A model generated the notes under the pieces. The model ran no database searches. It had not been told where the DNA came from and saw only the letters and a program-made list of their open reading frames with translations. From a phage: DNA of 64,000 bases. Positions 99 through 55,672 of this stretch are shown piece by piece (within the stretch, counting starts at the first letter, position 1; each line of letters opens with the position of its first letter). The stretch lies in assembly GCA_027218345.1 (NCBI GenBank), contig GCA_027218345.1_3950.1; one strand, given 5' to 3'. A program made the position numbers and the translations under genes.

Positions 99-174
99 TG
101 GAGAATCCGAGGGGACTCGAACCCTTGTAAACCTGTCTTGCAGACAGGTACATATCCATTTCTGTCACGGATTC
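99..174 (-). tRNA. tRNA-Cys (anticodon GCA)
   Basis: Minus-strand cloverleaf by hand: encoded CCA, T-loop TTCGAGT, anticodon loop CTGCAAG, acceptor cggattc/gaatccg, discriminator U. Confidence 0.6.
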
Positions 175-178
175 AAAT

Positions 179-271
179 TGGAGGAAGATACCAGACTTGA
201 ACTGGTACACCGATTTCTCAGCTACTGGCAGTTTAGCAAACTGCTCCCTTACCTTTTAGGGTTAATCTTCC
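179..271 (-). tRNA. tRNA-Ser (anticodon GCU), class II
   Basis: 93 nt, encoded CCA, perfect acceptor ggaagat/atcttcc, T-arm ACCAG-TTCAAGT-CTGGT, anticodon loop TTGCTAA, long variable arm. Confidence 0.6.
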
Positions 272-272
272 A

Positions 273-1007
273 TTATTTCTGTAATGCGTTCTTCATTTCT
301 GGTGTTGCAATAGCATCAATTACACCAGTTTTACAAGCATCATCAAACCAGTCTGGTAAGATACCTGCTAAGAACCCATTGATATTCGTTTTAAGGTACT
401 CTGCAATAAGGGCAGCTTCTTCTTCAATCATCTGCACAACTTCATCTGCATAAGCTGTAATCTTTGAAATACCTTCATTAATCTTACTGACAGCTTGGTT
501 AGCTAAATCAGAAACAGTATCAAGACCCTTGTCAATAGCGTCTTGTAAGTCACTTAACACACCATTAACACTATCTAGTGTACTGTTAATCATGTCAATA
601 GCTTTTTGACCATACTCTGTAGCAACACCCATGATACCACTGAATGGTGTACAACCAACTTGTTCTCCTGCTGCACCCATAACATTGGAGTATCCTTTTG
701 CTACCTGCATACGTGATGAAAACTCATCAATAGACTTTTGACCGTAGTCTGTTAGGGTCTTAGTAGTTGCTGTAGTGCTTGTAAGGCTTGTTGTAAAGCT
801 GTTTAGGAGGACTGTTGTAAGTCCAGCAGCAACAAGTTTCTCCTTCATTGTAGGGTCTGTTACAGAGCTAATAGAGCTTACAAGTGATGTAGAGGCAGCT
901 ACGGTTCCGCCGAGAACTGCTGCACCAGTAATAAGTGGGTTAGAAAACCCTTTACCGGTTTTTAAGAGATTAAAAATCTCCTTACCTTGTCCTGTCATCT
1001 CTTTCAT
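273..1007 (-). CDS. hypothetical Ser/Thr/Ala-rich protein inside the tRNA cluster
   Basis: ORF with ATG (MKEMTGQ) preceded by AAGGTG; upstream part of the listed ORF overlaps a tRNA and is dropped. Confidence 0.45.
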   Translation of the reverse strand: MKEMTGQGKEIFNLLKTGKGFSNPLITGAAVLGGTVAASTSLVSSISSVTDPTMKEKLVAAGLTTVLLNSFTTSLTSTTATTKTLTDYGQKSIDEFSSRMQVAKGYSNVMGAAGEQVGCTPFSGIMGVATEYGQKAIDMINSTLDSVNGVLSDLQDAIDKGLDTVSDLANQAVSKINEGISKITAYADEVVQMIEEEAALIAEYLKTNINGFLAGILPDWFDDACKTGVIDAIATPEMKNALQK

Positions 1008-1025
1008 TAAGCACCTTTGAAATTG

Positions 1026-1100
1026 GTAGTCCAGTGGGATTTGAACCCTCTTCTCATGTTTTTCAGACACGCGCTTTAACCATATAAGCTACTTGGACTA
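1026..1100 (-). tRNA. tRNA, probable Phe (anticodon GAA); CCA not encoded
   Basis: Perfect 7-bp acceptor tagtcca/tggacta, T-loop TTCAAAT, anticodon loop CTGAAAA; D-region irregular. Confidence 0.45.
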
Positions 1101-1105
1101 TAAAT

Positions 1106-1181
1106 TGGGGTGACCTACGGGATTTGAACCCGTATAGACCATGTTCACAGCATGGGTCATTACCATTTATGATAAGGCCAC
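1106..1181 (-). tRNA. tRNA-His (anticodon GUG)
   Basis: Encoded CCA, discriminator C, T-arm ACGGG-TTCAAAT-CCCGT, D-stem tcat/atga, anticodon stem ccatg/catgg with loop CTGTGAA. Confidence 0.65.
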
Positions 1182-1212
1182 ATTTAAGGACTCTCGTAAG
1201 AACCCTTAGAAG

Positions 1213-1288
1213 TGGCAGCGGCATAAGGATTTGAACCTTAATAAGACAGCTTCAGAGACTGCTGCATTGCCAGTTATGCTATACCGCT
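1213..1288 (-). tRNA. tRNA-Gln (anticodon CUG)
   Basis: Encoded CCA, discriminator G, T-arm TAAGG-TTCAAAT-CCTTA, D-stem gcat/atgc, anticodon loop CTCTGAA. Confidence 0.5.
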
Positions 1289-1293
1289 AAATT

Positions 1294-1372
1294 TGGTACT
1301 CCATATCGGATTCGAACCGATACATAACACAGATTTTAAGTCTGGCCTCTCTGCCAATTGGAGTAATGGAGC
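1294..1372 (-). tRNA. tRNA, class-I shape, anticodon probably UAA (Leu-type)
   Basis: Encoded CCA, discriminator A, T-arm ATCGG-TTCGAAT-CCGAT, D-loop AATTGGCAGA, anticodon loop CTTAAAA; short variable region. Confidence 0.4.
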
Positions 1373-1374
1373 AT

Positions 1375-1450
1375 TGGCGGGGGATGTTGGAATTGAACCA
1401 ACTTCTTCGATTTCAAAGACCGAGGTTTTAACCTTGTAAACTAATCCCCT
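1375..1450 (-). tRNA. tRNA-Gln (anticodon UUG)
   Basis: Encoded CCA, discriminator G, T-arm GTTGG-TTCAATT-CCAAC, D-stem gttt/aaac, anticodon stem tcggt/atcga with loop CTTTGAA. Confidence 0.55.
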
Positions 1451-1458
1451 TTAAATCT

Positions 1459-2016
1459 TTACTTTCTCAGTGGATGAATAAAGAATGCCAACATAACTCT
1501 TTCCCTTGAGAATGCTCTTTCTTCTGGGACAACACTTTTTAGTTTCCATCCAATATAAATTCTCCAGTAAAATTGTTTACCAAAGATTTTAATTGATGGG
1601 ATAAAAGCGAATAATCCCCAAGCATTCCTGTTCCACATTAGGAGATAACCAGTCTGATTATCTTCAGGGTTAGAACTTACGTTGATATTACCTTTCCACT
1701 TAGTAACATCTTTTACATCTCTTCCTAACACATGGTAAGAGAAGTTATAAGCTTTGTTTCTCCAGAGCCATCCAACTCTCTGCAAATAGACACCTAGCTT
1801 ACCAATCTTTCTAATCTTAGCCCATCTTTTAACGTGGCCTTCATCACCATCAATTGGGTTATCATATGTCTCCATCCATCTGAATCCAAAAGGGAGATGT
1901 CCTTTCTTCTCACTGTAGAATGGAACTACGAAAGGTGCTAAGATGACTGCTAGGGTTGCTGCAAATGGTTCTAGTAAAGCTAGGAAAATCCATGAAGCAT
2001 ACTTCAAATATCTCAT
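1459..2016 (-). CDS. hypothetical protein with N-terminal hydrophobic segment
   Basis: 185-aa ORF between tRNA genes; N-terminal stretch of about 25 hydrophobic residues. Confidence 0.45.
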   Translation of the reverse strand: MRYLKYASWIFLALLEPFAATLAVILAPFVVPFYSEKKGHLPFGFRWMETYDNPIDGDEGHVKRWAKIRKIGKLGVYLQRVGWLWRNKAYNFSYHVLGRDVKDVTKWKGNINVSSNPEDNQTGYLLMWNRNAWGLFAFIPSIKIFGKQFYWRIYIGWKLKSVVPEERAFSRERVMLAFFIHPLRK

Positions 2017-2035
2017 CTAAATAGCCTCTTAAAAT

Positions 2036-2113
2036 TGGTGTTCCAAGACGGATTCGAACCGTCACTAATACAAGGTTTGAGCTTGCATCCTCTGCCAATT
2101 GGGATACTGGAAC
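2036..2113 (-). tRNA. tRNA, class-I shape, anticodon CAA (Leu-type)
   Basis: Encoded CCA, discriminator A, T-arm GACGG-TTCGAAT-CCGTC, acceptor gttccag/ttggaac, D-loop AATTGGCAGA, anticodon stem gcaag/cttgt with loop CTCAAAC, 6-nt variable region. Confidence 0.45.
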
Positions 2114-2114
2114 A

Positions 2115-2189
2115 TGGTACTCACTAAAGGACTTGAACCTTTTTCTTCATCTTGTAAGGGTGATGTTTTACCATATAAACTAAGCGAGT
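2115..2189 (-). tRNA. tRNA-Val (anticodon UAC)
   Basis: Encoded CCA, T-arm AAAGG-TTCAAGT-CCTTT, D-stem gttt/aaac, anticodon loop CTTACAA. Confidence 0.55.
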
Positions 2190-2284
2190 GTGAAAGAGGT
2201 CTGAAGTTGTGCCGCTAACTCAACTCCGTGGAATTTGTTACGGTCTTCAGTTGACACCAGCGGTCTTTCACTTGACCTCTGAAT

Positions 2285-2361
2285 TGGTGCTGCTCACAGG
2301 ACTCGAACCTGCATTTCCATCCTTACAAGGGATGTGTAATAGCCAATTATACGAAAGCAGC
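2285..2361 (-). tRNA. tRNA-Thr (anticodon UGU)
   Basis: Encoded CCA, T-loop TTCGAGT, anticodon stem catcc/ggatg perfect, loop CTTGTAA. Confidence 0.6.
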
Positions 2362-2367
2362 TTTATT

Positions 2368-2442
2368 TGGAGCATCCAGAGGGAATCGAACCCTCAACCT
2401 CAGTTTGGAAGACTGTAATTTTCCCGTTTAAACTATGGATGC
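2368..2442 (-). tRNA. tRNA-Gly (anticodon UCC)
   Basis: Encoded CCA, discriminator U, perfect acceptor gcatcca/tggatgc, T-arm GAGGG-TTCGATT-CCCTC, anticodon loop CTTCCAA. Confidence 0.6.
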
Positions 2443-2448
2443 ACTAAT

Positions 2449-2524
2449 TGGTGGAGAAGCAGGGAATTGAACCCTGTACTTAAGTTTGCAAAACTTATGT
2501 TTTAACCATGTAAACTACATCCCC
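2449..2524 (-). tRNA. tRNA-Ala (anticodon UGC)
   Basis: Encoded CCA, G3:U70 wobble in acceptor, D-stem gttt/aaac, perfect anticodon stem taagt/actta, loop TTTGCAA. Confidence 0.65.
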
Positions 2525-2530
2525 AATGTC

Positions 2531-2606
2531 TGGTACAGGTGGAGGGAATTGAACCCATCGTCTTACTGATTAAGAGTCAGCCGCATAACCATTTTGCTAC
2601 ACCTGC
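2531..2606 (-). tRNA. tRNA-Lys (anticodon CUU)
   Basis: Encoded CCA, discriminator A, T-loop TTCAATT, anticodon loop CTCTTAA; T-stem has mismatches. Confidence 0.5.
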
Positions 2607-2613
2607 ATTAATT

Positions 2614-2690
2614 TGGTACACCTAGAGAGATTCGAACTCACACTGAGCAGATTCTAAGTCTGCTGCCTCTACCAGTTGGGCTATAGGTGC
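2614..2690 (-). tRNA. tRNA, class-I shape, anticodon UAG (Leu-type)
   Basis: Encoded CCA, discriminator A, D-loop AACTGGTAGA, perfect anticodon stem gcaga/tctgc, loop CTTAGAA, 5-nt variable region. Confidence 0.5.
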
Positions 2691-2948
2691 ATTAAATCTT
2701 TTTAGAGAACTTCTAAGAACCTAAGCAACAAGGTTCCACAACAAGCTGTAATAACCTTAGAAGCCCTCTAAAAAGACCTAAAAAGGTCTTTACATAGTCT
2801 TGTTTAATCCGGTGACTAGAACCTTTGGAGAGCTTGATATTATCTCTTCTCCGTGACACCTACTAGGTGCTTTATCAGTGTGTACGACAATACACGAGGG
2901 ATACCAAAGCAACATCCGAATGAAGCTTGGCTTTAAAATCTTATTAGG

Positions 2949-3036
2949 CGGTAAGTAAAGGAGTCGAACCCTCACCGTATCTCTACAGTGGCAACTGTTT
3001 TCAAGACAGTTTGGCTACCATTAGCCGCTACCTACC
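2949..3036 (-). tRNA. tRNA-Ser (anticodon UGA), class II; CCA not encoded
   Basis: 88 nt, discriminator G, anticodon stem actgt/acagt with loop CTTGAAA, long variable arm, T-loop TTCGACT. Confidence 0.55.
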
Positions 3037-3049
3037 CCTAATAAGACTT

Positions 3050-3132
3050 TGGCATGGGACGGAGGAGTTGAACCCCTTTGAAACGGTGTTGGAAGCCGTT
3101 GCTCATGTCTTAGAGTCTTAACATCGTCCCAC
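3050..3132 (-). tRNA. tRNA, non-canonical 83 nt, anticodon possibly CCA (Trp)
   Basis: Encoded CCA, discriminator G, acceptor gtgggac/gtcccat, T-loop TTCAACT; D region enlarged, fold uncertain. Confidence 0.4.
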
Positions 3133-3275
3133 ACTATAATTCGAAGCTTACCGTATTATCTCAACACTGTAAAGCCCCTTCTCAGATTATTTACATGTTC
3201 TGGAAAACATGAGATACAGACCACCTCCCTACAGGAAGACCCGCTTAGGTCGTCTAAGTAATCTGCTAACTAAAT

Positions 3276-3357
3276 TGGTCGAGGCGGCAGGACTCGAACC
3301 CGCATACTCCACTTACTCGGTTAACGGCTGTTTAGAAGACAGCTGAGATACGCCCCG
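3276..3357 (-). tRNA. tRNA-Arg-like (anticodon UCU), non-canonical architecture
   Basis: Encoded CCA, acceptor cggggcg/cgcctcg, T-arm GCGGG-TTCGAGT-CCTGC, stem-loop gctgt-CTTCTAA-acagc; no normal D-arm found and about 23 nt before the T-arm. Confidence 0.4.
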
Positions 3358-3561
3358 TAATTATCTTTAAAGACTCTCTTAGAAAGCCCTTAAAGATGCC
3401 CACCTTATTAATCATACCGTGGGCGAGTACGCCAAATTCTTTGATGAGGGGTTGGAAGACCTCACTGGTGTTTAGCCTATCAAGCTACTGCCAGAAAAAC
3501 ATTGTCGTTTGCATTTATTTTAAATTTGCAAAATAGACGCTACGCAACGAAAACTAAGGTT

Positions 3562-3590
3562 ACTATAAAGTAGTCACATCTCAGTGTCAA
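3562..3590 (-). promoter_or_regulatory. sigma70-like promoter candidate inside the tRNA cluster
   Basis: On minus strand TTGACA, 17 nt, TATAGT. Confidence 0.35.
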
Positions 3591-3605
3591 CAACTTTATT
3601 GAAAT

Positions 3606-3683
3606 TGGTACTGTGAGAAGGATTCGAACCTTCTGCCTTTCGGTTATCAGCCGAATGCACATCCATATGTGCTAACCCACAAT
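3606..3683 (-). tRNA. tRNA-Ile (anticodon GAU)
   Basis: Encoded CCA, perfect T-arm GAAGG-TTCGAAT-CCTTC, D-arm gcac-ATATGGAT-gtgc, anticodon stem ttcgg/ccgaa with loop CTGATAA; acceptor pairs only with a 4-nt connector. Confidence 0.5.
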
Positions 3684-3760
3684 TGGAGGTTCAGATGGGA
3701 TTCAAACCCACATTCATAGGGCTTATGAGACCCTTGCATTACCTTATCTGCGACTGAACC
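3684..3760 (-). tRNA. tRNA-Met or Ile2 (anticodon CAU)
   Basis: Encoded CCA, perfect acceptor ggttcag/ctgaacc, T-loop TTTGAAT, anticodon stem agggt/gccct with loop CTCATAA. Confidence 0.55.
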
Positions 3761-3764
3761 ATTT

Positions 3765-3840
3765 TGGTAGAAGTGGAGGGATTCGAACCCATCGCCTTTC
3801 AGATTAAAAGTCTGCCGCATCACCATTCTGCTACACTTCC
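3765..3840 (-). tRNA. tRNA-Lys (anticodon UUU)
   Basis: Encoded CCA, discriminator A, T-loop TTCGAAT, anticodon loop CTTTTAA. Confidence 0.55.
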
Positions 3841-3846
3841 ATTAAA

Positions 3847-3986
3847 TTATCTTTGTAGATAAGCTACCCAGACTTGCTTAAGGTCTGTAGCGATGTGCCT
3901 TTTTGGGTTTAAATCTAGAATTTACCCTTTCACCCTTTGTGGTCGCATACTCACAGGTAAGCTTAATAACTTATCTACAAAGATAA
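3847..3986. repeat. pair of identical 16-bp palindromic hairpins in inverted orientation flanking 108 bp
   Basis: TTATCTTTGTAGATAA at 3847-3862 and its reverse complement at 3971-3986. Confidence 0.6.
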
Positions 3987-4268
3987 TTACCAGACCGTTG
4001 TTTATCATCTTAAGTGCTACCATTACACCAACTCGACATCTGCCGAGTGAAGGAATCGAACCTTCGCCTTTTCTTTACCGAGAAATAGATTGTTTAAGTT
4101 TTGCTGTAAACGGTCTTCTGTAAATTTGTTGAGCCAGACCAAGTTTTAAATTTTTCAAAATTAAATTGGCTTGAAATTTTAAGTAACTTGCTGTATTTGG
4201 TCTTCTGCTCCTTTAAAGGATGCTCGTAAGAACCCTTTAAGGGAGGGGCTAAATAGCCCTCTCAAAAT

Positions 4269-4343
4269 TGGCGAGGTGTGCGAGAATCGAACTCGCGGCT
4301 CAGGAGAGACAATCCAGTATTTTACCCGTCTAAACTAACACCC
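4269..4343 (-). tRNA. tRNA, probable Asp (anticodon GUC)
   Basis: Encoded CCA, discriminator G, perfect T-arm GCGAG-TTCGATT-CTCGC, D-stem gttt/aaat, anticodon loop TTGTCTC with one stem mismatch. Confidence 0.45.
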
Positions 4344-4350
4344 CAAAACC

Positions 4351-4779
4351 CTATGTACCATTTCTTAAGTACTTTTCTTTGCGTCTTGCTGAATTATAGT
4401 ATTTACGCCCTTCAGCATTTTTAGAAAGCCTACAAGCCTCACACCTGCATCCTCTTCTATAACCAGAAACTGTACCATGTTTAATTGGTGTGTACTTCCT
4501 TTCACCAATCTGTTTTGGTCTTGTTGCTTTCGAGTTACAGTGTATGTGGCTATATGAGATGTTATCTAGTGAAAAGAAAAGCTCTTTTGCATTTTCACTA
4601 TGTCTCCACGGAGTCTTATGCTCAATAGAGAAATCATCCCTAGTCATTTCTTTCCCGCACTGAAAACATCTATTTTGATTTGTTTTACATATAAAATCAA
4701 ATAGTAAATCTTTTACTAGCCTGTTTTGTGCAGTTCCTAAACTCATACCAAGCTGTGATTTGTATACTTCATCTCTCAT
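4351..4779 (-). CDS. HNH homing endonuclease
   Basis: HNH/zinc motifs CFQCGKE...IEHKTPW...SHIHCN and C-terminal CxC cluster; embedded in tRNA cluster; internal ATG start preferred over TTG. Confidence 0.65.
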   Translation of the reverse strand: MRDEVYKSQLGMSLGTAQNRLVKDLLFDFICKTNQNRCFQCGKEMTRDDFSIEHKTPWRHSENAKELFFSLDNISYSHIHCNSKATRPKQIGERKYTPIKHGTVSGYRRGCRCEACRLSKNAEGRKYYNSARRKEKYLRNGT

Positions 4780-4802
4780 GACTAAGTATCTCAATAAGTG
4801 TT

Positions 4803-4890
4803 TGGTGTGCCGTGTAGGAGTCGAACCTACCGAGTCTCAATGACAAGGGATTTACAGTCCCCACCGCTACCATCTACGGGATAACGACAC
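4803..4890 (-). tRNA. tRNA-Tyr (anticodon GUA), class II
   Basis: 88 nt, encoded CCA, perfect T-arm GTAGG-TTCGACT-CCTAC, anticodon stem-loop gggga-CTGTAAA-tccct, long variable arm. Confidence 0.6.
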
Positions 4891-4899
4891 ATTTAAATT

Positions 4900-4976
4900 T
4901 GGCGGTTAGTCAGGGATTCGAACCCTGTGCCATTCGCTTAACAGGCGACCGCACATACCTTATGTGCTTCCTAACC
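4900..4976 (-). tRNA. tRNA-Asn (anticodon GUU)
   Basis: Encoded CCA, discriminator G, perfect T-arm CAGGG-TTCGAAT-CCCTG, D-stem gcac/gtgc, anticodon loop CTGTTAA. Confidence 0.55.
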
Positions 4977-5053
4977 TTAATACATTGCCAGACCGTGTTT
5001 TTTCTTTTATCCGCAAAAAGTATTTTGTTGCTGAATACGGTCTTCTGCAAAAT

Positions 5054-5130
5054 TGGAGGCGGGTGCAGGAGTCGAACCTGCCGATACCATGCTAATGAGA
5101 CATGTGAGACGCCCTTTCTCTATACCCGCA
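5054..5130 (-). tRNA. tRNA-Met or Ile2 (anticodon CAU), second copy
   Basis: Encoded CCA, perfect T-arm GCAGG-TTCGACT-CCTGC, anticodon stem catgt/gcatg with loop CTCATTA; T1:C72 mismatch. Confidence 0.5.
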
Positions 5131-5221
5131 ATTCTTAATGACCAGACCAAATCTCTTCTTTGTCCGATTTACCTTCAGATGAATAAGATTAAGTTTGCTG
5201 TAATTGGTCTTCTGTCAAAAC

Positions 5222-5299
5222 TGGCGTTCCAGAAGGGATTTGAACCCTCAAATATCCACTTTGAAAGAGTGGTGACTTTACCATTTTGTCTACTGGAAC
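5222..5299 (-). tRNA. tRNA-Glu (anticodon UUC)
   Basis: Encoded CCA, discriminator G, perfect acceptor gttccag/ctggaac, T-loop TTCAAAT, perfect anticodon stem ccact/agtgg, loop CTTTCAA. Confidence 0.55.
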
Positions 5300-5306
5300 A
5301 TTAATT

Positions 5307-5382
5307 TGGTCTCTGTTGGAGGACTTGAACCTCCGGCCTTACCGCCCCAAACGGAACGCTCTACCAAGCTGAGCTAAACAGA
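5307..5382 (-). tRNA. tRNA-Pro (anticodon UGG)
   Basis: Encoded CCA, perfect acceptor ctctgtt/aacagag, D-arm gctc-AGCTTGGTA-gagc, T-arm GGAGG-TTCAAGT-CCTCC, anticodon loop TTTGGGG. Confidence 0.6.
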
Positions 5383-5548
5383 GATAAACTTTTCAAACTC
5401 TATGTAACCACTTTAACATTATTTTTTAGTGGTTGTCAAGAACTTTTTAAAATATTTTTCAGTATCTTAGAAAAGCTCTCATTTCGTTTCTATGTAGAAC
5501 ATATTAAAGGGTATCAAACACATTGTCAATACCCTTTTTTAAAACTTT

Positions 5549-36522: not shown

Positions 36523-37470
36523 TTACATAGAAACTCTGTCACGAATCTCAGCAATTTTTGCATCATTCATTCGGGATTCACCTTTAATCTTAGTCCATCC
36601 AAGATAACCACACACCCTGTTAATCACAGAGATATCATGTGAATGGCAAACCTCACATTCTTCAACATCAGCCTTTGGTCTGTTACCACAATGCTCACAG
36701 ATTGCTAAGTCAAAGTTAAGCCCCTGATAAAAACCTTTCAACATCCCTCTGGTAATACAACTTTTAAGTGCTGTTAAGTTTTCTGGGTTAGCTACCCTTA
36801 CATACTGGATTCTGCCACCTCTACAGATGTGGAAGAATGGCTCTTCTAAGTCCTGCTTCTCAAATGGTGAAATGTTTGCTGCAACATTCATATGGAAACT
36901 GTTTGTAAAGTATTCCTTGTCAGAAACGCCTTTGATAACACCAAACATATCTCTGAACTGTTTTAGCTGAGTTCCACACAATGACTCTGCTGGAGTGCCA
37001 TATACTGCATACAGGAAGCCATCTTCATTCTTAAACTCTTCAGTTTTCATGTTAATGTATGCCAGAACATCGTATGCAAAACTAGAACTTCCAACTTCAT
37101 GGAGTCGTTTACCTTCAGCAAGAACAGATAACTCATCAAGCGCAGTAACCCCAAAAGAAGCTGTGAAGGACTTCACGATATCCCAACCAACCTTGTCGGT
37201 AGGTTTTTTAGTTCCTTTGTACAAACCACCTTGTGTGAATGCAAGAGGGTTAGAACTTGCTGGCATATTAGCAATCATTTCGTAGCGTTTCTTGTGGAAG
37301 CTGCGAATCATCTCTAGGTACTTATCAAGCTCTTTCCAGAAATCTAAACCATTCTCTTTAGAATACTGGTAAATCATTGGTAAGTTCAAAGATACCGCAC
37401 CAATGTTAGCACGACCTACATAAAACTCTTCACCATCTTCGTTATGGTATGGTGATAAAAATGCTCTACA
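36523..37470 (-). CDS. nrdD: anaerobic ribonucleoside-triphosphate reductase, exon 2
   Basis: Frame continues upstream of the listed ORF to CRAFLSPYHNEDGEE; C-terminal glycyl-radical motif RVCGY and CxxC...CxxC. Confidence 0.85.
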   Translation of the reverse strand, partial: CRAFLSPYHNEDGEEFYVGRANIGAVSLNLPMIYQYSKENGLDFWKELDKYLEMIRSFHKKRYEMIANMPASSNPLAFTQGGLYKGTKKPTDKVGWDIVKSFTASFGVTALDELSVLAEGKRLHEVGSSSFAYDVLAYINMKTEEFKNEDGFLYAVYGTPAESLCGTQLKQFRDMFGVIKGVSDKEYFTNSFHMNVAANISPFEKQDLEEPFFHICRGGRIQYVRVANPENLTALKSCITRGMLKGFYQGLNFDLAICEHCGNRPKADVEECEVCHSHDISVINRVCGYLGWTKIKGESRMNDAKIAEIRDRVSM

Positions 37471-37786
37471 CTTGTTGTTCAGGTAAGTTCGCTACGCTTA
37501 CCCCGCTTTATTCAAGCTGCTTACTGTCGCCAGTAAGTCCAGACTATATCTTCTACTTATTTCTAAGTAGCGTACCATTTCGAGTCGCTTGACCCTACAC
37601 CGCTACATTCATCACGGTTAGTCGTTCGGCATTTAGATGTATTCAAACTCATATTCGAAGTTACTTGGCATGTAAGACTCCTATGTTGTATAGTTTCTTA
37701 CATCGTACATCATTTAGCACAGGATTGTCTACTCTTGTAGAGTTTCCCTGTTTAGGCACGTTTTAGATGAGCTATAGAGCTTGTTA
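37471..37786 (-). mobile_element. group I intron (ORF-less) in nrdD
   Basis: 316 nt between exons; 5' exon ends in U, intron ends in G; conserved core similar to T4 td/nrdD introns plus GACUA/UAGUC P7 pairing. Confidence 0.7.
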
Positions 37787-38983
37787 ACCCATCGGCGAAA
37801 TAACCTTGCCAGAACGCTCAAAAGCTTCTGCTACAGCACCATGACCAGATACACTTAAGAAATCTGGATACATCGCTTTAGAGCAACACTCAATAGCTTT
37901 ACTGTACAGGTGACTTTGACAGATATTTTCATCATGTCTCTTCTGGTCATAAATATAAACCAGTTTAGGGAATACAACAGGCTTCTTGCTCTTACCTTGT
38001 CCATTCATACGAACATCTAGGAGAGTACTTGCAATCATGTATTGTAGCCGGTTGTCTTCATTAGACATATCTGAGTCAAGTAAACCAAATGTCAAAGTTG
38101 TGAATGCGAAATCACCACGGCTGCAAGGTACGGTGTTTAGCTTCATTTCAAGTGATTGAAAACCTTGAGTCAATTCAAGCTGTAGCTGCTCCATGACATA
38201 ATTATGGTAATGTTCTTTAGGAATACCATAAGATGCTGCTTTCTCAGCATGGTAACGTAGAGACTTCTTAGCATACGGTACAAGTACCTTATCAATCTCT
38301 GCTAAAGTAAAGCCACCAAATTGCTGTGCAGTTGCTGAAAGAACTACATCACCAATAACCTGTAAGGCTGACAGCACAGACTTTGGTTCACAGTATTCAA
38401 TGCCAGACATTTCAAAGCCACCTTTCAGTACTTTACCAATGTCAAACAAGCAACAGTTAATACCACCAAAAATTAGGTCTCTTAAATCATGGATATAGAT
38501 AAACCCTTTTTCAATGGCTTCAAGTTCCTCTGGTGTTAAGTGGTACTGTTTAAAGATTTCTTTAGTCAGATAACCACGAATAATTGAACCTTTTGTAGAA
38601 ATTAAACTGCTGTCAAAATTAGCGTTTTCTCTGTCACCTAAGAAGAGTGTATCTTTGGTCTTCTGGTAGAGTTCATCCCAATTTTGAGCAACCTCTTTAC
38701 GGTAATTTCTATATGTTGAGTAAGACTCATAAATCTCGTGATTGACTTCTGCCAAAGCACCCTCAACAATACTGTGAATATCATTTACTGAAACGAGTAA
38801 ATTATTCTGCTTAGTGGACTTTACCAGAATCCTCATAAATGCTGACTCAAGAGCTTGGGTAACATCTGGTGGAAGCTCTTTATAACCAACTCTGTTAGCT
38901 GACTTTGTGACTGCTACTAAAACTTTTTTGATATCAGGTTCTTCGAGTGAGCCATTCTTTTTAATAATCTGTACTTTGTTCAT
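37787..38983 (-). CDS. nrdD: anaerobic ribonucleoside-triphosphate reductase, exon 1
   Basis: ORF ends ...ISPMG then in-frame TAA that begins the intron; joins exon 2 to give conserved SPMG-CR. Confidence 0.85.
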
Positions 38984-51911: not shown

Positions 51912-52168
51912 GTAAGCCTCTTTTAAGTAACTATTAAGTTTTAATCTTTTATCTTAACGTATTCTATACGTTATACTTTAAAGCTTTTTAAAAGCTATTA
52001 AATAATCTTTTAAGAATTTTAAAGTATCTGTATAGTTAAACTGTTAAGTAACCTTTTAAGTAAAAACCCACTTCGCAAAGATTAACACCTTGTCAAGTAC
52101 ATTGTCAACTTGCTTTTTATAATTTTTTGCAGTAATGTATGTGGTTAATGATTTTAGAGGGAGTAAAA
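51912..52168. promoter_or_regulatory. divergent promoter region upstream of DNA polymerase and the minus block
   Basis: Contains CACCTTGTCAAGTACATTGTCAAC, near-identical to the motif at 7556, plus TATAAT. Confidence 0.4.
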
Positions 52169-54311
52169 ATGGAAAACGTAGATTTTAAAAACTTACATTT
52201 GGTTGGCGATACAGAAACTGATGGTTTACTCCTTGAGTTCACTAAAGTACACGTAATGGCTTTCGCAGACTATAAATCTGACGATGAAGAGCCACCTGTA
52301 TGGGTCTTTACAGATGAGCCTATCCTCGGTCACAAGTACACTAAGTACATTAAGGGTGGTTTACGTGAAGGTGTTGAGTTTGCGTTAAAGGCAAAACGAC
52401 TTTGTATCCATAACGGCCTCGGTTATGACTGGTGGGTCTTCAATCACATTGCACCGGATTTATGGAACTTTGATAATCCAAAGTGTAAGCCGTGGAGTAA
52501 TTTCTTTCAGGATTCTCTTATCCAGTCTCGTGTTCAGTGGATGGATAGACCAACTCCAAAGGGTTATAAAGGTGCTCATGGCTTGGCTGCATGGGGTGCT
52601 CGTGTTGGTGTCCGTAAACCAGAGATTGAACATTGGGGTGTGTGGAATGCAGAAATCTTCACTCGTGTTGTGGAAGATATCCGTATTAACGCCAAAACTA
52701 AACGCGCACTAGATAATGAATATCTCAAGCTGAAGAAGTGTGGCATAGACACCTATGAAACCTATATGCGAGCTAAAGAAACATCTTTCTGGATGAGTCA
52801 ACAAGCTATCAATGGTTGGAAAGCTGATAAAGAGCTTATGGAGTTCCATGTAAAGGAACTTGACAAGTTGACTAATGAGCTTGCTTCGGAAGTTGAACCA
52901 CATCTTCCTCCAACTATTAAGACCAAAGGTAAAGTTACTGGGGAAGAGTTTGCAAAAGCTTGGAATGAGTATGTTGAAGCATTTGGTCATGCAGATGGAC
53001 TGAAGAGAATCACCAAGTACCCTAAGACAAAGTATCGTCAGCAGGTACGTAATGGTGAAATGCAGACATATGAAATCAAGCCATTTGGTAAGCCAACTAC
53101 AAAGATTTTTAACATTGAAAAGAGAAATTGCTATACGCCAACCAACTCTGTAACTGGTGAAGAGTACAAGGAAGGTTTTGTAGCAATGAAGGATGCTCGT
53201 GCAATTTGCAATGAGTTGAACGCAAAGATTGGTAAGAAATGCAAAGACTGGAAGCCAGTAAAAACAGTCAAAACTGTGAAGTACTATAACAGCCACGTTG
53301 TTAACCACTTTGAACTTGAGTCAAGTCGCTACACAGGATTGATTGATGCACCATATACACCAATTGAGTTTGAAGTTTCTCGTATGACTCAGGTAGCAGT
53401 TGTTAAAGACTACTTGAAATCAGTTGGTTGGATTCCAGATGACTGGAACTACAAGAAAGACTCAGATGGTCGCCCTGTCAAAGTTTGTCGTTTCAAAGAC
53501 AATAAAAAGATGATTACAAAGCATCCTAAGTGGCAGGAGATGGTTGAGCGGTGTGGTTTGAGCTATGTTGAGCATGAAGGTGTACAGTACATTGAGCATA
53601 ACTGGTCTGTGAAGAAATACACAGATTTGCTTGAGCCTTGCTTAATCCGTACTTCACCAAAACTTACTGAATCATCTTATGATACGATTGAAGGTGAACT
53701 TGGACAGAAGATTGCTAAGTACTATACTTTGATGCACAGACGCAGAACTATTGAGAACTCAAAGGATGATGAAAAAGGTTGGTTGAACCAGATTCGTCCT
53801 GATGGTCGCCTTAGTGCTGGTGCAATGGTATTTGGTACTTCAACTGGACGTATGACACAATATGGTATTGTAAACGTACCGTCTGGTGCTGCTGTCTATG
53901 GAGCACCTATGAGGGCAGTGTGGATTTGTGAAGATGGAACCAACGTAGTCTCCGTTGATATGAACTCAGCCCAGCTAGTTCTTCTTTGCAACTTTATGGG
54001 TGATAAAGAGTTCACTAAAGCAGTAACTGAAGGTAAAGAGTCAGTAGAATTTACCAAGCAAGAAGATGGGAGGTATTATTGCAAACATCTTGATAAGTAC
54101 CTTAATCCAGAAACTGATAAGTATCTTCGTTATGATGCTGAGAATGACCTCTATGAGGTCTACACAGGGACTGATGCGCATACACTGAACAGTATTTACT
54201 TTGGTCTGAACAAGGAGGAAGATATTGTTCGTTGTAGGGAGACACAGGATGAGGAACTTCTTCACGAGATTACAAAAGGCCGTAAGAAAGCCAAAAATGG
54301 CATTTATGCGT
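52169..54311 (+). CDS. DNA polymerase family A, exon 1
   Basis: 3'-5' exo motif LVGDTETDGL at N-terminus; ends inside motif B (RKKAKNGIYA); start set at MENVDF after GAGGGA RBS. Confidence 0.85.
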
Positions 54312-54578
54312 CAGTGGCGCATGTAAAACGTTGTGAATTGCTGGAAGCCTAAGTCTGTAAAGATATGGTAATCAGCAGCGAAGCCTCTTAAGAGGAACGT
54401 TCAGAGACTATCGAAAAGCATACTTAACGTATGAACTGAGTAGAGTAGGGTGGTAAGCTAATGACCATCCCAAGTGCAACGGTAGCACCACTGCTACGTG
54501 ATATAGTCCGACACTCCGTAGAAATGCGGAGAAGTTCATAAGAGAACTGGTACACCTTGCGAGTGTATTGACCAGATG
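54312..54578 (+). mobile_element. group I intron (ORF-less) in DNA polymerase motif B
   Basis: 267 nt; exon ends in U pairing with intron GCGCAU guide (terminal U-G wobble); P/Q/R/S-like elements AATTGCTGGAAG, AATCAGCAGCG, GTTCAGAGACTATCG, GATATAGTCCG; intron ends in G. Confidence 0.7.
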
Positions 54579-55135
54579 TATTGTTCGGGGCTGGAGACGA
54601 GAAGTTTGCAAAAACTATCAAGGCATCATCTACGGAAGAAGGTGCATTGACTAAACAAACTTACTATATGCGTCTGCCAAAGATTAAGAAGTTACTTGAT
54701 AGCTTAGAAGCCGATTTTAAGGCGTCTAAAAAGGCTCTGGAAGAGGTTTTTGGGAAGAATTCTTCAATTGCTAAAGGTGGTTATATCAGGGTCGCTGGAG
54801 CATGGATATGGTGCAAATCTCCACATAAACTACTGAACTACCTCCTGATGAGTTCGGAAGCACAGATTCAGAATGAGGCCATCAACCTAGCAGCAAGAAA
54901 AGCCTGTGAAGATGGCCTGACAAAACTGAATGCTCGAAAACCAGCTATCGGAGCAAGGTTACTTCTGGCATATCACGATGAAAATAGTTGGGAATGTCCA
55001 GAGGGTATGACACATGATATGAAAGCAATTGCTGACTGGATGTATGGACAAGCTTCAAAAAACTTAGGTTTGAGGAAAGAAACACTTGTAACTGGTACAG
55101 CAAAGGTTGGTAAGAGCTGGTATGAGGTACATTGA
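54579..55135 (+). CDS. DNA polymerase family A, exon 2
   Basis: Begins LLFGAGDEK (rest of motif B), contains motif C YHDE; spliced product gives RKKAKNGIYALLFGAGDEK matching T7-type motif B. Confidence 0.8.
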
Positions 55136-55138
55136 TTA

Positions 55139-55672
55139 ATGGATTTAATTTTACAAAAACGTTTAAAGGAGCTGCTGCACTATGACCCCGAAACAGGGGT
55201 CTTTACTTGGCTTCGTAGAGAAGGTAAATCAAGAGCTGTTAGTGTTTTTAACAGTAATTATGCAGGAAAGGTGGCAGGTAATATCCAGACTGACTCAAGT
55301 GGTCATAAACAGATTAGTATCTATTTTGACAAGAAAGCACATAAAGCACACAGACTCGCATGGCTTTACGTGTATGGCAAGATGCCAAAAGGTATCATTG
55401 ACCATATCAACGGCGACTCACTTGACAACAGGATTGTAAACTTAAGGGAAGCAGATGATTTTCAAAGTGCTTGGAATAAAGGTAAACCAGTCACCAATAA
55501 ATCTGGGTACAAGGGTGTAAGTCTTAAGAAGAAGTCTGGTAAGTGGGTCGCACAGATAAGTTATAAAGGTAAGAAGATGTTTTTAGGTTACCATGACACA
55601 CCTGAAGAAGCCCATAAAGCTTACTGTGAAGCTGCTATTAAACTCCACGGAGAGTTTGCAAAACTAAGTTGA
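55139..55672 (+). CDS. free-standing HNH homing endonuclease with AP2-like DNA-binding domain
   Basis: HNH motif KGIIDHINGDSLDNRIVNLR and AP2-like YKGVSLKKKSGKWVAQISYKGKKMFLGYHDTPEEA; starts 4 nt after polymerase stop. Confidence 0.75.
   Translation: MDLILQKRLKELLHYDPETGVFTWLRREGKSRAVSVFNSNYAGKVAGNIQTDSSGHKQISIYFDKKAHKAHRLAWLYVYGKMPKGIIDHINGDSLDNRIVNLREADDFQSAWNKGKPVTNKSGYKGVSLKKKSGKWVAQISYKGKKMFLGYHDTPEEAHKAYCEAAIKLHGEFAKLS

Follow-up and report, generated by a model that had tools for sequence, protein, structure and literature searches.

An ORF-less intron of group I in motif B of a Felixounavirus DNA polymerase gene and the HNH-AP2 endonuclease gene beside it

Introduction

The window analysed here is a 64,000-nt stretch of phage DNA (contig GCA_027218345.1_3950.1 of GenBank assembly GCA_027218345.1) from a Felixounavirus (Felix O1-like) phage. 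Within it, the gene for a family A DNA polymerase breaks off in motif B, and a free-standing endonuclease gene follows almost directly after the polymerase stop codon. A preliminary description, made from the sequence alone, took the interruption for a group I intron lacking an ORF and the arrangement as that expected of an intron spread by its free-standing neighbour (collaborative homing). Two questions are raised by this locus: is the interruption a spliced intron with definable borders, and which element moves it? For comparison, a protein-guided search of IMG/VR provided 16 loci, and the sample was then enlarged from GenBank phage records. The counts given below derive from 33 loci, an evenly spaced sample drawn from about 260 genomes and tip-specific counts, and the loci are not independent of one another.

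Results

The polymerase exons join exactly within motif B

The following features, all on the + strand, define the interrupted gene:

52169..54311, +, DNA polymerase (family A) exon 1 (open reading frame and sequence; relatives annotate it as DNA polymerase)
54312..54578, +, ORF-less group I intron, IA-type, 267 nt (Rfam, empty sites, pairing, covariation)
54579..55135, +, DNA polymerase exon 2, UA UUG UUC GGG..., read as L-LFGAGDEK... to the UGA stop

The polymerase ATG at 52169 has the best ribosome-binding site (GAGGGAG). Alternative ATG codons lie upstream at 52139 and 52148, and some records start the polymerase at the equivalent of 52148, which gives 906 aa, as reported for Felix O1. Exon 1 breaks off in motif B one base (U) into a Leu codon (...RKKAKNGIYA|L), and its frame, ...GRKKAKNGIYA, continues for 13 codons into the insert before reaching TAA. 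The length of the insert is in frame (267 nt), yet it contains seven in-frame stops. When 54311 is joined to 54579, the Leu codon, split U|UA, is rebuilt and the frame reads ...IYA-L-LFGAGDEK... through to the UGA at 55133-55135. The predicted ligated exons at the junction are ...AUUUAUGCGU|UAUUGUUCGG..., and the predicted peptide across it contains ...NGIYALLFGAGDEK....

Joining the exons restores a recognisable polymerase. The spliced C-terminal region matches Pfam DNA_pol_A with 54.2 bits (cut-off 34.3), while exon 2 alone remains below the cut-off with 25.2 bits. Motif B (R..AK....Y/F...Y/F-G) is intact in the spliced frame, with GRKKAKNGIYALLFGAGDEK aligned to TRDNAKTFIYGFLYGAGDEK of T7. 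The spliced product aligns to T7 polymerase residues 517-621, and the junction falls between T7 G527 and F528. This places the intron in motif B, the nucleotide-binding O-helix, at about position 763/764 of Klenow and 527/528 of T7. A comparison with intron-less relatives confirms these borders: in 19 of them the gene reads straight through, the exons abutting at exactly the 54311/54579 point and encoding the same peptide (...IYA|LLFG...). The proposal that the frame breaks in motif B and resumes 267 nt later at LLFGAGDEK is thus borne out to the nucleotide.

The insert folds as a subgroup IA ribozyme

The structural elements, again all on the + strand, are as follows:

54305-54311 / 54317-54323, +, P1, exon UAUGCGU with guide GCGCAUG (7/7 pairs)
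54312-54316 / 54579-54583, +, P10, loop CAGUG with exon 2 UAUUG (5/5 pairs)
54329..54481, +, catalytic core (pair check, RNAalifold, recurring hairpins)
54329-35/54475-81, +, P3 (pair check; RNAalifold)
54339-44/54372-77, +, P4 (pair check; RNAalifold)
54347-54369, +, P5-P5a with GUAA loop (pair check; P5 by RNAalifold)
54378-54400, +, P6-P6a (pair check; RNAalifold)
54388..54391, +, P6a terminal loop UUAA, the insertion point of an ORF segment in sister phages
54404-54410, +, P7 5' strand (pair check)
54419-54433, +, P7.1 (pair check)
54448-54470, +, P7.2 (pair check)
54482-54497, +, P8 (pair check)
54498-54509, +, J8/7 and P7 3' strand (pair check)
54514-54531, +, P9 with GAAA loop (pair check)
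54534-54547, +, P9.1 (pair check)
54548-54574, +, P9.2 (pair check)

A search with the Rfam covariance model Intron_gpI (RF00028), which the preliminary description had suggested, matched 54249-54531 with 62.8 bits (gathering score 50, E = 1.5e-13); the model wrongly places its 5' end in the exon but aligns the P3-P9 core. The same model gives 63.3 bits for a 311-nt variant of the intron and 91.8 bits for the related intron of an N4-like phage. The group I hallmarks that had been proposed are all found. The intron starts with CAGUG and its last base is G54578, every helix from P1 to P10 pairs, and P1 carries a U.G wobble at the 5' splice site (U54311.G54317). The exon partners of P1 and P10 are invariant in 13/13 intron-bearing loci (TATGCGT|...|TATTGTTCGG), and the intron contains the classical blocks P, Q, R and S (AAUUGCUGGAA, AAUCAGCAGC, GUUCAGAGACUAU and GUGAUAUAGUCCG). 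Also as described, no ORF is found within the 267-nt intron of the window, where P6a is closed by UUAA.

Comparative evidence supports the core. RNAalifold applied to seven homologs recovered 27 pairs in P3, P4, P5, P6 and P6a, 12 of which show compensatory changes (in P3, P5, P6 and P6a). P4 and P7 are invariant among the homologs and therefore uninformative for covariation. Within the genus, compensatory changes occur in P6a and P8, the latter as C-G/U-A in six loci. The P7.1 and P7.2 hairpins are kept in position in 6-7 homologs while their sequences differ, and the presence of both extra hairpins between the P7 5' and P3 3' strands assigns the intron to subgroup IA (phage type). With a minimum-free-energy z-score of -1.64, the fold of the whole intron falls short of significance and gives no support in itself; a weak value is expected because the ribozyme is pseudoknotted, P7 being invisible to such folding. 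The centroid fold recovered P1, P3-P6a, P7.1, P7.2, P8 and P9.

The sequence evidence thus confirms a group I intron with exact borders at 54312-54578. Splicing would be expected to proceed as in other members of the family, with the exon end UAUGCGU paired to the guide GCGCAUG and free guanosine attacking after U54311. The terminal G54578 would then take the G site while P10 aligns exon 2, and ligation would restore the Leu codon to yield a single polymerase of 899-906 aa.

Could the gene instead function, or fail, without splicing, as two polypeptides, through read-through or frameshifting, or as a dead gene? Most GenBank records do carry two separate "DNA polymerase" CDSs, and exon 2 offers an in-frame TTG at 54581. 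We nevertheless consider this highly improbable. The insert has seven stops in frame and scores highly as a group I ribozyme, with covarying pairs and with P1, P10 and the terminal G all correct; the break lies inside the O-helix, between catalytic residues; the insert is borne by approximately 97 viable phage isolates; and the exon bases of P1 and P10 are unchanged in all 13 carriers. Read-through, frameshifting and an intein are ruled out by the stops together with the scoring ribozyme, and a two-subunit polymerase is unlikely because the break falls within the O-helix.

The genus contains several forms of the intron

The intron occurs in about 97 of some 261 related phage records. Across the 33 loci the site is polymorphic: it may be empty, or hold the clean 267-nt form, a form of ~800 nt with an ORF, or a 311-nt remnant. 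Among phage records, the clean form was counted in at least 34 and the remnant in ~10. In the ~800-nt form an Endo VII-type homing endonuclease ORF occupies the P6a loop. These sister phages, including JH2, DE7 and PMBT20, have a segment of ~535 nt with a 160-aa ORF at the P6a loop point; the JH2 intron matches bases 1-77 and 80-267 of the window intron around this insert. The JH2-type ORF matches Pfam Endonuclease_7 with 70.5 bits, the motif being C-terminal; some records name the intronic endonuclease a recombination enzyme. The core of the ORF-bearing introns is 96-99% identical to that of the window.

The 267-nt copy would accordingly represent the ORF-less state of a mobile intron whose siblings hold an Endo VII-motif homing endonuclease in P6a, and the genus appears to display the stages of a homing cycle, from the empty site and the endonuclease-bearing intron to the deletion remnant and the clean ORF-less intron. 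Because the 311-nt form retains the flanks of the ORF on both sides, it must have arisen by deletion. Given this remnant and the sibling ORF, loss or turnover of the ORF is a documented route to an ORF-less intron at this site. For the window copy itself such a loss would be no more than a possible origin, because a single deletion from the ORF-bearing form does not yield its clean P6a tip.

The direction of change could also be the reverse, with the 267-nt form ancestral and never invaded, and the Endo VII-type gene a later arrival in the UUAA loop. This is a serious alternative, held at somewhat below even odds. The 4-bp stem and 4-nt loop of the clean form are unobtainable from the JH2 type by one deletion, the conversion requiring a U-A to C-G change plus two extra bases, and a single tip, CCTCTT(A/G)AGAGG, is common to all 267-nt copies. 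In reviews, too, the preferred general account of how mobile introns arose is the invasion of ORF-less ones (PMC3984707). Against an ancestral clean form, ORF deletion is demonstrable at the site in the 311-nt remnant, and the ORF-bearing state is old, since the two variants of the intronic ORF share no more than 73-79% identity. Furthermore, ORF-less and ORF-bearing introns have SNPs in common, indicating that the forms recombine, which blurs any tree. An ancestral 267-nt form is compatible with either of the mobility models considered below.

The downstream endonuclease slot is polymorphic in its own right

55139..55672, +, HNH_3 + AP2 homing-endonuclease gene, type 1, 177 aa (Pfam)

As the preliminary description stated, an HNH-AP2 gene begins 4 nt past the polymerase stop: UGA is followed by UUA and then by ATG 55139, with GAGG 11 nt upstream. 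Both domains score above their Pfam cut-offs (HNH_3 54.4 bits, cut-off 24.8; AP2 47.0 bits, cut-off 33.3), and judged by its sequence the gene is an intact free-standing homing endonuclease. No promoter-like or terminator-like site was found in the interval between the polymerase and HNH genes, and the latter is probably co-transcribed with the polymerase and translated from its own GAGG ribosome-binding site. The HNH-AP2 family occurs in 3,522 phage records, T7 gene 3.8 included, and 40 phage records hold type 1 at ≥ 95% amino acid identity. A sequence search of the PDB with HNH-AP2 returned plant AP2 domains only and no characterised endonuclease.

The slot downstream of the polymerase is separate from the intron site and polymorphic, with at least five HNH sequence types found both with and without the intron. 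The HNH gene is missing in 7 of the 33 loci, and other types replace it elsewhere; the slot is occupied in 12 of 18 intron-less loci, and four different HNH types accompany the 267-nt intron. In genomes with HNH types 2 and 3, the intron site equals that of HNH-free genomes at 119/120 bases (for example L008 versus L011), so these types evidently need no intron for self-protection. BLASTP detected no homology of the Endo VII-type ORF inside the intron to the free-standing HNH-AP2 protein; such a relationship would have paralleled the T3/PhiI pair.

Which element moves the intron?

53950..55650, +, divergent cassette enclosing the intron site and the HNH gene (identity profiles)

Within this cassette the 3' 1.2 kb of the polymerase gene shares only ~75% identity with the Felix O1-type allele, against 95-99% in the flanks. 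The intron itself is 96-99% identical across polymerase alleles with a mutual identity of only ~75%, and the exon tracts that move with it are short and variable (about 7-25 nt per side). This pattern suggests that the intron moved between divergent polymerase alleles by recombination, together with ~7-25 nt of exon on each side. The simplest account of the spread of ORF-less copies would combine two routes, one in trans through the intronic endonuclease of co-infecting relatives and the other through ordinary recombination or hitch-hiking. The intronic endonuclease has its closest outside relative, at 51% identity, in a motif-B intron of a T7-like polymerase, 11 nt upstream of the present site, a location that fits an endonuclease family targeting motif-B DNA. 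HNH-AP2, for its part, probably promotes its own spread and that of the adjacent polymerase 3' tract containing the intron site. Our joint reading of the locus, with a probability of about 0.68, is that a self-splicing IA intron is present here in the ORF-less state of a mobile intron, and that HNH-AP2 is a separate element.

Collaborative (trans) homing, the explanation put forward in the preliminary description, would assign HNH-AP2 type 1 a direct role. The enzyme would cut the intron-less Felix O1-type polymerase gene at or near the insertion site, the carrier genome being protected by the intron or, if intron-less, by a recoded allele, and in the recipient, repair would then copy in the intron together with exon 2 and the HNH gene. 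Several observations are in line with such a process. An ORF-less intron sits 557 bp from an intact free-standing HNH gene beside the same host gene, and type 1 is never found with a Felix O1-type site among 6 loci and the 40 best database records. The six type 1 loci, window included, comprise three with the intron and three with the recoded allele, and ~32 of the ~40 type 1 records bear the intron. Phages bumzen and AN17P8 are intron-less with the recoded allele; Felix O1 and wV8 have the unmodified site and no HNH gene. Type 1 genomes differ from one another in exon 2 and the HNH gene by 0-2 bases per 50 nt, compared with 1-11 per 50 nt in the 300 nt upstream of the intron site, as expected if the stretch from an intron-site break to the HNH gene were always co-converted. 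A downstream HNH gene accompanies the ORF-less intron in 10/10 loci, versus 24/33 loci overall, a comparison that involves four HNH types and non-independent loci and carries no phylogenetic correction. There are also precedents in T3/PhiI and S-PM2 (PMC3984707, PMC6083498).

However, the same data contain a number of points that speak against it. Since types 2 and 3 have the near-invariant exon 2 allele as well, this allele has no specific tie to type 1, and both of these types coexist with an unmodified site. Felix O1-type alleles also harbour the intron, flanked by tiny co-conversion tracts and in the absence of HNH type 1 (loci L003, L004, L025 and L028). An outside helper is unnecessary, as sibling copies have their own intronic endonuclease; physical linkage over 557 bp explains the association; and the two enzymes, free-standing and intronic, show no sequence relationship, in contrast to the T3/PhiI pair. 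The idea that the recoded site confers a special immunity on intron-less type 1 genomes is likewise weakened, because the site differs at ~31% of bases versus ~24% over the whole divergent tract and is not clearly enriched. Collaborative homing for HNH type 1 is therefore possible but doubtful. Endonuclease turnover, which has been proposed for the arrangement of an intron with an adjacent free-standing endonuclease (PMC10448857), would together with hitch-hiking account for the data at least as well.

A more elaborate version, in which three selfish elements converge on one 30-bp stretch of the O-helix, seems to us unlikely. In this version HNH-AP2 type 1 would cut the Felix O1-type motif-B sequence, and its carriers would escape either by the ORF-less intron or by the recoded allele, in which the changes include Ala to Ser within the conserved R..AK; a rival Endo VII-type enzyme residing in the intron would target the same stretch. 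If it were true, Felixounavirus would offer a culturable natural population showing every step proposed for the meeting and fusion of a free-standing endonuclease with an ORF-less intron, with dozens of isolates available for crosses.

Discussion

The importance of these findings is modest, and specialists will find them unsurprising. Their most direct use is in annotation: most of the ~97 related GenBank records split an essential polymerase gene into two CDSs, and the exact intron borders make a correct CDS join possible. The motif-B site (T7 527/528) extends the list of positions at which introns have been published for family A polymerase genes of phages, and lies 11 nt from that of a related intron in T7-like phages. 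Felixounavirus phages are easily grown and widely used for biocontrol of Salmonella and E. coli. Their natural isolates cover all intron states and five free-standing endonuclease types, which makes the genus convenient for testing collaborative homing against endonuclease turnover.

Comparison with known systems

The intron is already known and of a familiar kind, having been annotated for Salmonella phage Meda in 2019. Over its 267 nt the Meda copy is 99.6% identical to the intron described here, sits at the same site and likewise has no ORF, so that the two are one element. As in the window, an HNH gene directly follows the polymerase; in Meda it is of type 2, and exon 2 is mosaic. The Meda paper devotes one sentence to the intron, without borders, structure, splicing data or population context, and full-text literature searches yielded no characterisation beyond this sentence and an automated remark on "two introns" for SPJ41.

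The model for collaborative homing is provided by the PhiI/W31 polymerase intron with I-TslI, together with the free-standing endonuclease encoded by gene 5.3 of T3 (Bonocora and Shub 2004, 2009, as reviewed in PMC3984707 and PMC3428280). The likeness to the window is considerable: an enterobacterial phage family A polymerase gene, an IA intron with an endonuclease slot in P6a and a free-standing endonuclease gene right downstream of the polymerase. The PhiI/W31 intron occupies E. coli Pol I site 881 in motif C, whereas the window intron is in motif B, and the PhiI and T3 enzymes are homologs shown to cut the same position, whereas the Felixounavirus pair is unrelated in sequence. In the second precedent, the S-PM2 psbA intron with free-standing F-CphI (Zeng et al. 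2009; PMC6083498), the intron protects the carrier genome. S-PM2 differs in host gene and phage group, and the roles are exchanged: F-CphI is a free-standing Endo VII-motif enzyme, while in Felixounavirus the Endo VII-type enzyme is intronic and HNH-AP2 free-standing.

Polymerase introns of Yersinia phages Berlin and YpP-G and of LUZ24 also encode Endo VII-motif (DHHRN) endonucleases (PMC6083498). The intronic ORF of sister Felixounavirus phages shares 51% identity with an ORF in a T7-like phage of Yersinia, where the intron is likewise inserted in motif B. Both introns have the same element order and an identical P9.1 hairpin. They differ in that the Yersinia insertion is 11 nt upstream (AKTF|IYGF versus IYA|LLFG) and the window copy has no ORF. 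Among more distant systems, polymerase introns are found at site 674 in SPO1, SP82, Bastille and Pf-WMP3 and at 676 in phiL7 (PMC3428280). These too are IA introns in conserved and functionally critical regions of family A polymerases with an HNH-superfamily association, but at other sites and encoding nicking HNH enzymes; the window's site is absent from the three given in PMC3428280.

The td, nrdB and nrdD (sunY) introns of T4 are likewise IA introns of an enterobacterial myophage, genus-optional and with or without endonuclease ORFs, but in another phage subfamily and other host genes. The window also has an nrdD intron. Finally, in the proposal of Barth et al. (PMC10448857), it is the purging of the intronic gene that leaves an intron next to a free-standing endonuclease, which matches the 311-nt remnant state in Felixounavirus.

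Borders, fold and position of the polymerase intron

The elements at the interrupted polymerase gene are as follows:

52169-54311 (+), exon 1 of the family A DNA polymerase gene
54312-54578 (+), group I intron within motif B (O-helix)
54579-55135 (+), exon 2
55139-55672 (+), HNH-AP2 gene

The first polymerase ORF opens at 52139, with the best start at 52169 (preceded by GAGGGAG), reads ...GRKKAKNGIYA and meets a stop 13 codons on. The same frame is open again, as a second ORF, from ...LFGAGDEK to its end at 55135. Excision of 54312-54578 (267 nt) joins U54311 to UA (54579-80) and restores a Leu codon, giving a product that reads ...NGIYALLFGAGDEK... and is 899-906 aa long, depending on the start. 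The insert is in frame, yet contains 7 in-frame stops. In 19 intron-less relatives the exons directly abut at the same point and encode the same peptide, an exact match to the predicted junction. The ORFs, the splice join and these empty alleles thus confirm to the base the preliminary description of a frame broken in motif B and resumed 267 nt on.

A covariance-model search with the Rfam group I model yielded 62.8 bits (cut-off 50, E = 1.5e-13). The match, 54249-54531, is displaced 5', with P1-P2 of the model forced onto the exon and the P3-P9 core correctly aligned. When pairing was checked, all expected helices were found without mismatch, including the previously claimed hallmarks, the P1 pairing of exon with guide GCGCAU and the terminal G.

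Elements of the intron fold
P1: exon UAUGCGU with guide GCGCAUG, U.G at the splice site
P10: CAGUG with UAUUG
P3, P4, P5/P5a (GUAA loop), P6/P6a (UUAA loop): paired
P7 (bulged A), P7.1, P7.2, P8: paired
P9 (GAAA loop), P9.1, P9.2, terminal G: present

The presence of both P7.1 and P7.2 marks it as a class IA intron, as is typical in phages. Every nested helix was recovered in the thermodynamic centroid fold, and the 19-nt J6/7-P7 core is present in 99 viral contigs. RNAalifold analysis of seven diverse homologs independently found P3, P4, P5, P6 and P6a, 12 of the 27 pairs showing compensatory changes. P5, P6a, P7.1, P7.2, P8 and P9 recur at fixed positions although their sequences are unrelated. 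Within the genus, compensatory pairs occur in P6a (C-G vs U-A) and P8 (C-G vs U-A, six loci). The element is a genuine, well-formed group I intron and, judging from its sequence, is almost certainly self-splicing.

Pfam DNA_pol_A matches the spliced C-terminal region with 54.2 bits, exon 2 alone with only 25.2 bits and exon 1 not at all. Alignment of the spliced region to T7 DNA polymerase residues 517-621 (GRKKAKNGIYALLFGAGDEK vs TRDNAKTFIYGFLYGAGDEK) reveals that the intron falls within the codon for the counterpart of T7 F528, between O-helix Y526 and Y530; our own alignment places this site at about 763/764 in Klenow numbering.

Intron states across Felixounavirus

Of the 261 phage records that match the region, nearly all belong to Felixounavirus, the genus of Felix O1-like myophages that infect Salmonella and E. 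coli; the top match is 96.8% identical. The window also contains a cluster of 23 tRNA hits at 102-5383 (-), typical of Felix O1-like phages. Two records named "Campylobacter phage A132/A126" (MG065664 and MG065668) hold the Felixounavirus polymerase-intron-HNH region at 95.6% identity, and are probably mislabelled or contaminated.

A sample of 33 loci was typed, comprising the window and 32 related loci. Twenty have an empty site (for 19 of them the sequence covers the junction itself), and eight, the window among them, have a clean 267/268-nt intron. A 311-nt form occurs in two loci and an 802-805-nt form in three, the latter with a 160-aa ORF inside the P6a loop. This ORF has a C-terminal Endonuclease_7 motif (Pfam, 70.5 bits) and belongs to the Endo VII-motif "DHHRN" homing-endonuclease family. 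The 311-nt form retains both flanks of the endonuclease ORF, and is therefore a deletion remnant. Across all records, about 97 of the 261 have the intron: at least 34 with a clean tip, about 10 with the 311-nt remnant and about 42 with the endonuclease ORF. Of 257 columns in the intron cores, only 13 vary; SNPs common to ORF-less and ORF-bearing copies show that the forms recombine. Two intron-less loci (L015 and L017) have the junction TATGCGT/T (slash, insertion site), exon sequence otherwise seen only beside the intron, which may be the trace of a lost intron.

The anaerobic ribonucleotide reductase gene nrdD is likewise split by a group I intron, at 37390-37900 (-) (Rfam 54.3 bits, match 37520-37894); the two gene parts are ORFs 37784-38983 and 36523-37389 (Pfam NRDD positions 1-250 and 284-560). 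This intron, too, appears to contain no ORF, so that both introns of the window phage are ORF-less versions; UAB_Phi87, JH2 and Meda have a homing endonuclease ORF at the nrdD position (PMC4837284, PMC6486253).

Allele mosaic around the intron

The polymerase gene is mostly 95-99% identical genus-wide, but beyond about 53,950, as far as the stop codon, it occurs as alleles with a mutual identity of only about 75%. Whichever allele surrounds it, the intron keeps 96-99% identity. Its flanks are invariably TATGCGT/.../TATTGTTCGG, the P1 and P10 partners, with mosaic common exon tracts farther out (about 7-25 nt upstream, 3-20 nt downstream). A conserved intron in divergent alleles with short mosaic flanks bears the signature of homing-type gene conversion.

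The divergent allele covers 53950-55135, the final 1.2 kb of the gene, and has about 75% DNA and about 80% protein identity to the Felix O1-type allele, in genomes otherwise 95-99% identical; all 12 sampled loci with this allele have a downstream HNH gene. At six loci (L002, L005, L007, L019, L024, L026; window 54290-54295) RKKSK replaces RKKAK (GCC/GCT to AGC), an O-helix residue change in divergent alleles that lack the intron's co-converted flank. The recoded stretch resembles the target region of a T7-like intron, and may represent endonuclease-resistance recoding. Otherwise near-identical genomes show a dense mosaic of synonymous differences at 53915-53970, around the sequence coding for motif A (VVSVDMNSAQL). 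Only garuso (L004) matches the window version, and the stretch may be a further hot spot of recombination or endonuclease action.

The downstream HNH-AP2 gene

As first described, the HNH-AP2 gene directly follows the polymerase. It starts 3 nt past the polymerase stop and is preceded by a GAGG of its own; the gap between the genes contains no promoter-like or terminator-like site. It encodes an intact HNH_3 plus AP2 protein of a family very common in phages (3,522 records, T7 gene 3.8 included). At least five sequence types occupy this slot, which has no gene in 7 of 33 loci. The types have about the first and last 80 nt in common (95-100% identity), with strongly divergent central parts; those at the window slot and at L004, L015, L019, L027, L029 and L031 resemble cassettes swapped through conserved ends. 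Type 1, that of the window, occurs in about 40 records, about 32 with the 267-nt intron and the rest intron-less.

It had been proposed that this type 1 enzyme drives the spread of the ORF-less intron by collaborative homing, which we consider rather unlikely. In its favour, all ten ORF-less introns in the 33-locus sample have a downstream HNH gene, and type 1 is never seen with a Felix O1-type site, its genomes having either the intron or the recoded allele (RKKSK). Exon 2 and the HNH gene are also near-invariant in type 1 genomes, next to a mosaic stretch immediately 5' of the intron site, as expected from obligatory co-conversion from a break near the site to the HNH gene. Against it, the identical exon 2 is found with types 2 and 3, and these types occur beside the unmodified site. 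The same intron is accompanied by four HNH types and is also present in Felix O1-type alleles without type 1. With only 557 bp between intron and HNH gene, their association is explained by linkage alone. Furthermore, sibling intron copies hold their own intronic endonuclease, unrelated in sequence to HNH-AP2. Collaborative homing is a plausible inference that faces a documented alternative: Barth et al. suggested endonuclease turnover as the origin of such arrangements, the intronic gene being purged and a free-standing one gained (PMC10448857). The 311-nt remnant beside an HNH gene in garuso and Mushroom fits this turnover model well.

Comparison with known introns

Felix O1 was reported without introns, with an uninterrupted polymerase of 906 aa (PMC3185647). 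The Meda intron is 99.6% identical to that of the window, and its GenBank record joins the two polymerase pieces; most related records continue to list two "DNA polymerase" genes. For SPJ41, a 2023 paper mentions "two introns" from an automated scan, and our full-text literature search found no description of the intron's borders, structure, splicing or mobility. The intron is already on record for a sister phage and is of a familiar phage type; the chief value of the present analysis lies in the correct annotation and in a convenient natural system for testing the association of intron and homing endonuclease.

In the N4-like Escherichia phage vB_EcoP-ZQ2 (L021:460-760), a related, unannotated group I intron (Rfam 91.8 bits, 73% identical to the window intron's core) lies between two CDSs labelled "RNA polymerase". 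The nearest relative of the intronic endonuclease beyond the genus is a 51% identical ORF in a T7-like Yersinia phage (OR671244), whose group I intron and Endo VII-type ORF (L023:2297-3000) lack annotation. That intron interrupts polymerase motif B at AKTF/IYGF, 11 nt upstream of the Felixounavirus site, and has the same element order and an identical P9.1 hairpin. The "DHHRN" family is already known from T7-like phage polymerase introns (PMC6083498). The Felixounavirus site differs from those published for phage family A polymerases, which by E. coli Pol I numbering are 674, 676 and 881 (PMC3428280).
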